Positions 9,073 through 64,000 of a stretch of 64,000 nt of DNA are shown one piece after another. Source of the DNA: Octopus vulgaris (Eukaryota); the NCBI GenBank assembly GCA_951406725.2, contig OX597836.1:31124001-31188000 (forward strand), written 5' to 3'. Both the position numbers and the translations under genes were made by a program. The notes under the pieces are model-generated. The model searched no databases and was not told the origin of the DNA. It saw nothing but the letters and a program-made list of their open reading frames with translations. The stretch's first letter is position 1, and every line of letters begins with the position of its first letter.

Positions 9073-9118
9073 TTGCCACTGATGAAGCTTAAAAAAGGCA
9101 GAAATCCAGATCTAGTAA
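9073..9118 (+). ncRNA. Hammerhead-like motif, repeat family H2
   Basis: UUGCCA-CUGAUGA-AGCUU..AGGCA-GAAA-UCCAGA-UC-UAGUAA. Confidence 0.55.
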
Positions 9119-23432: not shown

Positions 23433-24084
23433 TCTGAGTTCAAATTGTGTTGAGGTTGACTTTGTCTTTCATCCTTTTTCAGGGTCGATAAATTAAGTAC
23501 CAGTTACATACTCGGGTCGATGTAATCGACTTAGCCCCGCCCCCAAATTTCAGGCCTTGTGCCTTTAATAGAAAGGATAATAATTATTATTATTATTATT
23601 ATTATTATTAGTTTCCAACTAGCAATAACCACGCCTCGGATTTACCTCATTGGCCATGGTACTGCCTCTGCGGTACCATTTTACCGTTGAGTGTGTTACA
23701 TTATAAGGCACAAAAAGAAAATGACTCTCCCCAGACACAACAGAATATGCTTCAACACACGAAGTCATATAAAGAATCTTGCAAACCAAATCCAAAAACG
23801 AAACATTAAACACTATGTGTACTCAGGAAACAGATGTTCTTGAATGCCCAGCAGCAGTCAAAGGTCAGCTAGCAGCAGTAGTAGAATCGCTAGTTCTAGA
23901 TTTCTGATTTTAGCTTCATCAGTAGCAGGTATGTAAGTCACCTCATGCCAAGCAAATCTAAACTAGCTGATATGGATAAACAAAGATTGTAAGGTCACTG
24001 ATGTTTGTATTTGGCCAGAAAACTGGGCAATAATTCAGCTTTAGCAACAGAATTAGATTTAGTTCAAAATTAGCAATCTGTATA

Positions 24085-54553: not shown

Positions 54554-54672
54554 GCGTATGGCCATATCACGTTGAAAGTACTGGTTCTTGTCTGATCACT
54601 GAAGTTAAGCAACGTCAAGCCTAGTTAGTACTTAGATGGGTGACTGCTTGGGAAACCTAGGTGCTGTAAGTG
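54554..54672 (+). pseudogene. Full-length dispersed 5S rRNA pseudogene (intronic)
   Basis: GCGTATGGCCATATCACGTTGAA...GAAGTTAAGCAACGTC...GTTAGTACTTAGATGGGTGACTGCTTGGGAAACCTAGGTGCTGTAAG follows the invertebrate 5S sequence. Many CpG transitions and no oligo-T terminator. Confidence 0.9.
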
Positions 54673-59483: not shown

Positions 59484-59949
59484 GTAATTATTGTTATTGT
59501 ATATTCTGTACTCCTTTAAAGGGCCTTGTGTTTCTCAAGGAAGGAGAAGCAAAATATTTAGAGATCACACCTGGTTATTCTCACACCAGTTCCTATAACT
59601 GTGTGTCTCCTTTACAGCAGCACACCTGTTTCTATTCTCATTCTTAATAACTCTCTCTCTCCTTCTCTGGCCAGGTAACTGTACCTCCTCCTCTACAGCA
59701 AGACATCTGTATCTGTCTCTCTTATTTCTTTATTGCCCACAAGGGGCTAAACATAGAGGGGACAAACAAGGACAGACAAAGGGATTAAGTCGATTACATC
59801 GACCCCAGTAGTACTTAATTTATCGACCCTGAAAGGATGAAAGGCAAAGTCGACCTTGGTGGAATTTGAACTCAGAACGTAGCAGCAGACGAAATACCAC
59901 TAAGCATTTTGCCCGGCATGCTAACATAATTATATCAACCCCAATGCTT

Positions 59950-60224
59950 CATTATTTACATTATTTGCATTCGACGGATATTTGTCCTCATCTTGTTTGT
60001 TGTTAACAAAACGTTTCGGCTGATATACCCTCCAGCTTTCTTTAGGTGTCTTGGGGAAATTTCGAACCTGGGTTCTCATTCCTAAGGTATTTTTCATCAT
60101 CGGCGGCGGTGATGGCTCCTCCTCCTCTGCTGCTGCTGTTGTTCACTGCTTGGAATTGAACTCGGAATCTTGGGGTTAGTAGCCTGTGCTCTTAACCACT
60201 ACGCCATATGCCTGTGGGCATATG
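59950..60224 (-). mobile_element. tRNA-headed SINE-like element with a hammerhead-type tail (core degenerate in this copy)
   Basis: Head at 60141-60213 (TGGCGTAGTGG, GAGTTCAATTCC); tail homologous to 63040-63180. Confidence 0.75.
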
Positions 60225-60921
60225 CTTATCTGTTACTTATTTTATCAAACTCTATCCAATACTAGAATGTTCATCTGTGACCATTTCTTTTTTTTTTTAT
60301 TACTTTATTTCAAATCTTAACCATTTTGCTGCAGAAACCAAATATATCCACTCCAAATTTCATTACCCTGGAAAGCAGTTTTATATCCCAATCTGTATTT
60401 TATTGGAACTATTTTCTGTTGAGTGAAGGCACATGGCTCAGTGGTTGGAGCATCAAACTTACGATCGTGAGGTTGTGAGTTCGATTCCTAGACCGGGCTG
60501 CGTATTGTGTTCTTGAGCAAGACACTTTATTTTTTCGTTGTTCCAGTTCACTCAGCTGCAGAGATGTGATGTCACTGGTGCCAAGCTGTATCGGCCTTTG
60601 CCTTTCCCTTGGATAACATCAGTGGCATGGAGAGGGGAGACTGGTATGCATGGGCAACTGCTGGCCTTCCATAAACAACCTTGCCTGAACTTGCACCTTG
60701 GAGGGTAACTTTCTAGGTGCAATCCCATGGTCATTCATGACCGAAGGGGGTCTCCCATTTTCTATTGAGATACATCAAACTCATTGAGGCAAAGTGACTG
60801 GCAGAAAATACCAATTCTAATTATTTTAGTAGATATTTAGCATCATTACTGGAAGAATAACCATGAAATTTAATTTTGTAATTTAAGAGTTAACGAGTTT
60901 TTAAATCTTTTCTTCCCCCAG

Positions 60922-62727: not shown

Positions 62728-63096
62728 CATCATATGTATGTGTCTGTGTCTTTGTGCCTGTGGTTGTCTCCTATCACTGCTTGACAACCAGCATTGGTTT
62801 GTTTATGTTTCTGAACTTAACTATTTGGCATAAAAGACATTTAGAATAAGTACCAGGTTTTTAAAATGTTGGTTCTTTAGTTGATTTCTTTGACTAAACT
62901 GTTCAAGATAATGCTCCAGAATGGTTACAGTCCAATGACTGCAACAAGTAAAAGATCAAAAATAGTTTCTAATTTTTACTTTTGTTTAAACATTTCATAA
63001 ATTACAGTTCTATTTAAGAGATGAGGAATTATGCACATTATTTATATTTACCTTATTTACATTTGATGGATATTTGTCTTCATCTTGTTTGTTGTT

Positions 63097-63142
63097 AACA
63101 CAACATTTCAGCTGATATACCCTCCAGCCTTCATCAGGTGTC
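63097..63142 (-). ncRNA. Minimal type I hammerhead motif in the SINE tail
   Basis: GACAC-CUGAUGA-A-GGCUGG..UCAGCU-GAAA-UG-UU-GUGUU. Stem I fully paired, with CpG decay. Confidence 0.68.
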
Positions 63143-63858
63143 TTGGGGAAATTTCGAACCTGGGTTCTCATTCCTAAGGTATTTTTCGATATTATTATTA
63201 TTGAGAAGACCCGGCAAGCCAAATGAGACCATAACCTCGTGGCCTATGCCAGGGGCGTAATCAGCCTACTTATGCGTACCTTTCCTTCATTGGACACTAA
63301 ACTCTGCTTCTGAAAACCTGTTGAGGCGAGTGAAATTGAAATCAAATTCGTTGACTGGCATCCGTGCTAGTGGAGCGCTAAGAGTACCATACGAGCATGA
63401 TTGTTGCCAGAGCAGCTAACTGGCTTCTGTGCCGGTGGAACGTGAAAAAACATTCGAGCGAGGTCGTTGCCAGTTCCGCTGGACTGGCTCCTGTGCAGGT
63501 GGCACGTAAAAAACACCATTTGAGCGTGGCCGTTGCCAGTACCGCTTTACTGGCTCTCATGCTGGCGGCACGTAAAAGCACCCACTTGGCATTAGGAAGG
63601 GCATCAAGCTGTAGAAACTCTGCCAGATCAGATTGGAGCCTGGTGCAGCCATCTGATTTGCCAGTCCTTAGTCAAATCGTCCAACCCATGCTAGCATGGA
63701 GAACGGACGTTAAACAGTGATGATGATAATGATGATTCAGGTCACTGCCTGGAATTGAACTCGGAATCTTGGGGTTAGTAGCCTGCGCTCTTAACCACTA
63801 CGCCATATGCCCATGGGCATAACTTAGGAATGAGAACCCAGGTTTGAAATTTCCCCAA

Positions 63859-63904
63859 GACACCTGATGAAGGCTGGAGGGTATACCAGCCGAAACGTTG
63901 TATT
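63859..63904 (+). ncRNA. Minimal type I hammerhead motif in the inverted tail copy
   Basis: GACAC-CUGAUGA-A-GGCUGG(AGGGUAUA)CCAGCC-GAAA-CG-UU-GUAUU. Confidence 0.72.
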
Positions 63905-64000
63905 GCCAACAAACAAGATGAGGAAAAATATGTGTCAAAAGTAAATAATGTATTTTGTAAATTAGTTCATTAATTGATTGATTGATTTGTTCATCTATTG

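Follow-up and report, generated by a model that had tools for sequence, protein, structure and literature searches.

A tRNA-headed hammerhead repeat of Octopus vulgaris as the very probable pseudo-LTR of a Penelope-like retroelement with a putative RNA polymerase III start

Penelope-like elements (PLEs) that carry an endonuclease leave a recognizable signature in genomes, consisting of a pseudo-long terminal repeat (pseudo-LTR) from a partial tandem, an inverted, 5'-truncated copy and a tail of 30-40 bp at one end only (PMC8557442; here and below, cited papers are compared through selected passages). In the anole PLE Poseidon, two reverse-transcription start sites flank the tail in vitro, the element's protein cleaves and extends both DNA strands, and a dispensable hammerhead ribozyme lies inside the start of the open reading frame (ORF) (PMC11167929). 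Here, we describe a repeat family of Octopus vulgaris, represented by a focal copy at positions 59950..60224 (minus strand) of a 64,000-nucleotide stretch of contig OX597836.1 (the window, whose coordinates are used below), which is almost certainly the pseudo-LTR of an autonomous Penelope/Poseidon-type retroelement. As in anole Poseidon, reverse transcriptase (RT) is followed by an endonuclease (EN) of the GIY-YIG type at the C-terminus, the pseudo-LTR overlaps the ORF start, the opening codons contain the hammerhead, a tail of 30-40 nt separates two 3' ends, and targets are AT-rich (PMC11167929). However, the octopus repeat opens with a tRNA-derived head that holds A and B boxes, its sense strand lacks T4 runs, its cut site lies about 70 nt behind the ATG rather than 26, and its genomic pairs show one start site per arm. 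The explanation that we favor overall, with a probability of roughly 60%, is a Penelope pseudo-LTR on which RNA polymerase III (Pol III) starts at the head, with copies resembling short interspersed nuclear elements (SINEs) arising as by-products.

Parts of this architecture are known from other systems. The Schistosoma repeats Sm-alpha and Sj-alpha (PMC2770079, PMC6765202) also join a tRNA-derived Pol III promoter and a hammerhead in one short, high-copy unit; they are described as non-coding, often tandem and freed by cleavage, with the autonomous partner unnamed in those passages, whereas in octopus the unit belongs to a protein-coding element and is inserted in inverted pairs. The TRIMp3 elements Cassandra, Helenus and Ajax likewise hold a Pol III promoter derived from a small RNA inside their terminal repeat, but these are short, non-coding, non-autonomous LTR elements whose autonomous partners are expected to use Pol II, and the same review says of Pol III that it suits only short non-coding elements (PMC10886601); the octopus element, which is no LTR element, is autonomous. 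Animal non-LTR retrozymes (bioRxiv 10.64898/2026.07.22.740005) share with it hammerhead-bearing repeats derived from PLE pseudo-LTRs. In contrast to their tandem arrays, for which the passages report no tRNA head, the octopus family is dispersed, its copies being solo or in inverted pairs and direct tandems being rare in the mapped loci. Our literature search, which covered mostly papers outside subscription and had Repbase outside its scope, found no description of a Penelope element with a tRNA promoter, and the portions of the main text consulted of a 2026 octopus repeat annotation mention neither hammerheads nor polymerase III; a catalog may already list the family, either as a SINE or as a Penelope.

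The autonomous partner of the repeat was identified from the loose ends of RNA reads and the upstream flanks of genomic loci, which share one sequence. In one RNA run, 281 reads run upstream of the head into this sequence, and the flank, which is present in many loci, encodes the end of a GIY-YIG-like domain. The head was found behind the upstream-flank 18-mer in 27 of 30 loci selected by that 18-mer, and 21 of 30 RT-anchored loci (counted from the table) continue on the same strand into head or tail. The element reads as an ORF (RT and C-terminal GIY-YIG), a stop, 28 nt, the tRNA-like head, a triplet spacer and the next unit's ATG, followed by first codons that contain the hammerhead. One near-full copy (L230) contains RT, endonuclease, stop, 28 nt, head, spacer and tail, and partial tandems running from ORF end through head and tail to ORF start occur in 4 of 30 ORF-start loci. 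The tail ATG reads in frame into the N-terminal domain of the ORF; in 2 of the 10 copies shown the frame stays open for 120 codons, the others being decayed. A family majority sequence of 2,711 nt, built from 68 segments, holds a frame of 804 codons.

The protein assignments come from several lines of comparison. RT was identified by Pfam PF00078, above cut-off in three natural fragments. For the C-terminal domain of natural fragments Pfam gave no GIY-YIG match; its nearest clusters in the ESM Atlas are GIY-YIG ones (neighbors at 0.97, PF01541 in 18-27% of members), and the endonuclease motifs YSIPCSCG..Y.GET and EH..A..H can be read directly. A search for the partner by way of Pfam GIY-YIG, in which this tail lay behind the domain in 0 of 50 loci examined, failed; the Pfam model misses the endonuclease of this family. 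Unlike other families of the octopus genome, L230 has no cysteine cluster between RT and EN; together with the domain order, this absence appears to fit the Penelope/Poseidon clade, defined by a C-terminal EN and by the lack of the Zn-finger-like linker that Neptune and Nematis have (PMC8557442). The nearest named proteins are uncharacterized ones of insects, lancelet and Anolis (36-49% identity), unnamed relatives reach 60-72%, and a metagenome scan for relatives with DNA confirmed 0 of 127 stretches. Among the loci inspected, we also noted an abundant and apparently young PLE family (L097, L102, L109, L116 and others) with open frames of 781 aa, used as a control below, and a 909-aa open frame of a LINE-like element at L229 (7272 onward, plus strand).

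The family is large. In the genome searched (2.8 Gb, 227 contigs), exact matches to the 35-nt hammerhead core in its intact form number 2,121 against 0 for a reversed control, so that the motif is not due to chance, while exact 18-mers occur 8,988 times for the tail start, 6,097 times for the head and 1,172 times just upstream of the head. Together with a non-CpG divergence among copies of about 4%, these counts suggest some 20,000 arms. One arm was present in 200 kb of arbitrary genome stretches, and part of the family occurs in 20 sequencing runs from 10 studies under 6 organism labels. The initial annotation had proposed that head and tail travel together as a unit of about 270 bp. They do co-occur: the tail lies within 300 nt of the head in 22 of 30 head-selected loci (25 within 1.5 kb), the head within 300 nt of the tail in 19 of 30 tail-selected loci (21 within 1.5 kb; each of the two sets contains one copy from the window), and in 44/60 position-sampled arms the head lies in the same orientation no more than 900 nt away. 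The position sample comprises the first 60 of 100 listed tail-start matches, all at the start of one contig (C1), some of them being the two arms of one insertion. The unit, however, is not free-standing, since it is made of the 3' untranslated region (UTR) and the first codons of the autonomous element.

The focal copy is a dead solo repeat, the decayed pseudo-LTR of a Penelope-like element. On inspection of the sequence, the tRNA-like head, triplet spacer, minimal hammerhead and 5' palindrome that had been annotated were all located on the minus strand where they had been placed. The features of this copy and of a second insertion in the window (L061) are as follows; the Pol III consensus is TRGCNNARYGG for the A box and GWTCRANNC for the B box.

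59950..60224, minus strand: focal copy, solo pseudo-LTR of a Penelope/Poseidon-type element with the short 3' end and no inverted arm; aligns to family majority 2439-2684
60205-60224, minus strand: 5' palindrome; inner hairpin native, outer bases absent from the source element
60143..60213, minus strand: tRNA-derived head; best match tRNA-Arg, no cloverleaf called
60196-60206, minus strand: Pol III A box, fitting the consensus
60176-60182, minus strand: CTACTAA loop
60152-60161, minus strand: Pol III B box, fitting the consensus
60096-60142, minus strand: triplet-repeat spacer, degenerate here, (AAT/AAC)n in most copies
59950..60079, minus strand: tail, the first codons of the Penelope ORF; ATG at 60077-60079, reading in frame into the ORF N-terminus
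60005..60050, minus strand: minimal type I hammerhead, predicted dead in this copy; predicted cut after 60010
60039-60050, minus strand: GACAC-CTAAAGA, part of the hammerhead
60010-60017, minus strand: GAAACGTT, part of the hammerhead
59944..59949 with partner 60222-60227, minus strand: candidate 6-bp target duplication AAGCAT, short and weak, and not picked by a longest-match test
63003..63821, minus strand: second insertion, long-tailed arm, with some 500 bp of unrelated origin splitting its spacer
63819..63952, plus strand: second insertion, inverted short-ended arm, back-to-back with the long-tailed arm

The focal copy ends at 59950 with the short 3' end, whereas in about half of the family's ends the sequence extends 31 nt further. 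Its palindromic 5' end is present as annotated, but only the inner hairpin is native: upstream of the hairpin the source element differs from the palindrome, which is thus not part of it. The outer bases, absent from the source element, therefore arise at insertion, presumably by fold-back or junction microhomology. The interruption of the second copy's spacer (about 63203-63716) contains internal repeats, and inserts in the spacer are likewise seen in several loci. Directly behind the focal copy lies a copy (59722-59925, minus strand) of the most common dispersed repeat of the window (families D7/D10/D12/D16), and about 200 bp away, a different tRNA-like SINE head (about 60428-60530, plus strand) is oriented away from it.

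How the family inserts is visible in its arms. An inverted family piece lies upstream of 48 of the 60 position-sampled arms, and insertions mostly consist of two back-to-back arms within a single target duplication, with the 31-nt extension on just one of the two arms. Among the 73 two-arm insertions of a first set, 71 have the extension at one end and not at the other; a larger set, de-duplicated and overlapping with the first, gives 97 of 101, with the extension at neither end in 4 and at both in 0. An exact target duplication of at least 8 nt surrounds 47/66 pairs (the 71 minus 5 with an end that could not be placed), compared with 2% of shuffled pairs. The short-ended arm extends further 5' than its partner in 47 of 97 pairs. 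Neither arm is nested in the other in these pairs; both arms were therefore copied from RNA, neither being a copy of the other. The N7 allele agrees between arms in 46/52 pairs (0.61 expected) and disagrees in 6, and rare variants are common to both arms three times more often than by chance. All parts of the PLE signature, namely a pseudo-LTR in partial tandem, an inverted 5'-truncated copy and a tail at one end, are present in the octopus family, and we infer that each of the two nicked strands acts as a primer, with one start site per strand. In the mechanism that we propose, the element's protein would nick both DNA strands some 9-14 bp apart, and one complementary DNA (cDNA) would be primed from each nick, using two internal start sites for reverse transcription about 130 and 160 nt behind the ATG. 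Where start sites near the RNA 5' end are used, the copy would span from RNA start to start site, giving the SINE-like copies of about 300 bp, the focal one included. A freed cDNA end that snaps back on a short hairpin would leave the palindrome.

The remaining step concerns the RNA start. Head position 15 or less is reached by 28 position-sampled arms, of which 25 stop there and 3 continue into the ORF; 16 others stop inside the head. Of the arms that pass the head-start boundary, 21/29 run at least 100 nt further and 18/29 at least 300 nt. A second observation concerns terminators. Runs of four T residues terminate Pol III in animals; if Pol III reads the whole element, its sense strand should thus be free of them. 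The family majority contains no run of T>=4 in 2,711 nt, with 76 T2 and 13 T3 runs close to expectation (80 and 17.7). The P value for the absence of T4 runs is 0.017 by base shuffle and 0.036 by synonymous-codon shuffle of the 804-codon frame. Seven other retroelement frames of the octopus genome (four PLE families and three others, not clade-matched) have 1.9-4.6 such runs per kb, 41 in 11,469 nt, a rate that predicts 9.7 for the family majority. Natural copies carry 26 in 63,898 nt, at 18 scattered places and in one insertion, and a second set 23 in 46,522 nt, that is, 0.4-0.5 per kb in both sets. Taken together, the missing T4 runs and the 5' boundary seem to point to Pol III, an enzyme whose usual products are only short RNAs without coding function, transcribing a protein-coding retroelement. 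Pol III would start just upstream of the A box and run through the terminator-free frame into the next repeat. We consider a Pol III start at the head probable, and transcription of the whole protein-coding element by Pol III a tentative proposal, somewhat short of even odds.

Alternatively, the same Penelope pseudo-LTR could carry the tRNA-like head as a passenger, an old SINE in the 3' UTR. Transcription by Pol II would then begin at the head or close to it, and the missing T4 runs would be due to chance or composition. Pseudo-LTR promoters have been described for PLEs in passages of the review literature, Pol II RNA is capped and translatable, and the internal shuffles give P values of only 0.017-0.036. 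Nevertheless, T2 and T3 runs stand at their expected levels, and only T>=4 is missing, from frame and UTR alike, while none of the seven control frames falls below expectation for T>=4. Moreover, the boundary matches the position at which Pol III would start, judging by the usual spacing from the intact A box. This alternative is unlikely, if the likeliest of the three considered. More doubtful still is that the sharp 5' end is an artifact of reverse transcription, in which cDNA made from a long read-through RNA snaps back on the hairpin and no RNA starts there. Extra palindromic bases (start positions 1-3) in 10 of 25 boundary arms and several insertions that are perfect head-to-head palindromes would agree with this. 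On the other hand, the hairpin is weak as DNA (-1.3 to -2.6 kcal/mol) and probably unable to outcompete an RNA:DNA hybrid in mid-template, the other 15 boundary arms end at positions 6-15 without fold-back, and fold-back by itself cannot yield the un-nested pairs.

The least probable alternative, an independent SINE with a tRNA head and a Penelope tail that is amplified from its own short Pol III RNAs through the Penelope protein in trans, is hard to reconcile with the same head being present in the autonomous element, with two inherited variants found in both ORF-linked and short copies, the frame kept, and with hammerhead lesions that recur on both backgrounds without defining a short-only subfamily. 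In its favor, short copies exceed ORF-linked ones about five to one, and long-tailed solo copies still have the A and B boxes, the hammerhead and the two presumed start sites; in principle, such copies could be transcribed and serve as templates. A short-only subfamily, sought by shared variants and hammerhead lesions, was not found; one variant occurs in 14/121 short and 0/51 ORF-linked copies (a set enriched by the search with the focal copy), and also in two ORF-anchored loci. The family has the head with A and B boxes of a tRNA-derived SINE but not the independent non-autonomous lineage with its own 5' part, and its short copies seem to be by-products of RNA made from the autonomous element rather than a separate lineage.

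Several points weigh against the Pol III-driven Penelope that we favor. As regards the family, 16 of the 60 position-sampled arms have no head within 900 nt and the 16 mentioned above stop inside it, and an intact full-length ORF was not seen in any natural copy, the longest reaching 465 aa. The depletion of T4 runs is modest by the internal shuffles, and the seven control frames come from other clades; a clade-matched control sought in the genome returned the octopus family itself in 30 of 30 loci. The 5' boundary would also follow if Pol II started at that place, or from a hairpin at the head start. The RNA run mentioned above, which is under another species label, covers both directions equally, with no pile-up of molecule starts or ends; this likely reflects copies inside other transcripts and speaks neither for nor against Pol III. 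Translation of an uncapped Pol III RNA would call for an explanation, and the head holds a short upstream ATG. Finally, the processivity of Pol III is said to restrict such promoters to short non-coding elements (PMC10886601). The full scenario, in which an autonomous element captured a tRNA gene as its promoter, lost every Pol III terminator in a 2.7-kb sense strand, is translated from uncapped Pol III RNA and buds SINE-like copies, is accordingly one that we put forward as possible, with the odds slightly against it. The spacer between head and ATG (for instance in L024 and L029) is an unstructured (AAT/AAC)n run. This run is reminiscent of the CAA-repeat translation enhancers of plant virus leaders.

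The identities of head and hammerhead rest on motif match and alignment, since neither ARAGORN nor Rfam calls a tRNA or a hammerhead at the focal copy or at the loci examined. Detection of a tRNA, which the initial annotation had suggested as a check, failed also at lowered ARAGORN thresholds. In an alignment to 35 tRNA sequences of 7 isotypes from the octopus genome, the best match of the head is tRNA-Arg (z 8.9 and 8.2 against shuffles); a tRNA donor sought among phages gave chance matches only. The hammerhead was found in the pseudo-LTR by motif and folding. It shares all four traits listed for the minimal hammerheads of animal PLEs (PMC4209133): the common features include conservation at the level of the family, one additional base between positions 9 and 10.1, a G10.1-C11.1 pair, a palindromic 15.2-16.2 region and a short helix I. 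We see no difference in the putative ribozyme of octopus; those hammerheads are inactive as monomers and weakly active as dimers (PMC4209133). As had been annotated, the core of the focal copy is mutated: there are three lesions, G5A in the core, G10.1A in stem II and a G to T change that breaks a pair in the 3' strand of stem I. In the family the core is mostly intact, its 5' part being kept in 43/53 position-sampled copies, and G5A occurs in none of those sampled. Within inserted copies we found no selection on the hammerhead, core and non-core sites decaying at like rates (17/382 core and 202/4,054 other sites changed), and the cut site is not enriched as a preferred 5' end (8/84 ends, P 0.15). 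The hammerhead would act only as a dimer or with the help of protein, and would not set the ends of copies.

Other hammerhead-like and small-RNA-like sequences were also seen. The young PLE control family has a hammerhead-like motif of U3-A8 type behind a T-rich UTR. In the window, CTGATGA...GAAA motifs at 9079 and 10725 (plus strand) and 23922 (minus strand), two of them near-identical and 1.6 kb apart, possibly belong to another hammerhead family. A 5S rRNA-like sequence (54554-54672, plus strand; Rfam 87.6 bits) may be a pseudogene or a SINE head, and the 5' part of a U4 snRNA followed by an (AAT)n run (23552-23679, minus strand; Rfam 69.8 bits) looks like a retroposed fragment.

Repeats of the tRNA-headed Penelope kind will be mis-annotated as SINEs. 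The insertion statistics, with one long and one short end in 97/101 cases, a single target duplication and arms that are often un-nested, provide genomic support for priming from both nicked strands, each with one start site, a step that in vitro experiments with anole Poseidon did not resolve. For autonomous retrotransposons, transcription by Pol II (or read-through by Pol I) is the expectation; if true, a protein-coding Penelope driven by Pol III would break this expectation and raise the question of cap-independent translation. Likewise, internal priming near the RNA 5' end would, if true, be a route by which SINEs bud directly from their own autonomous partner.
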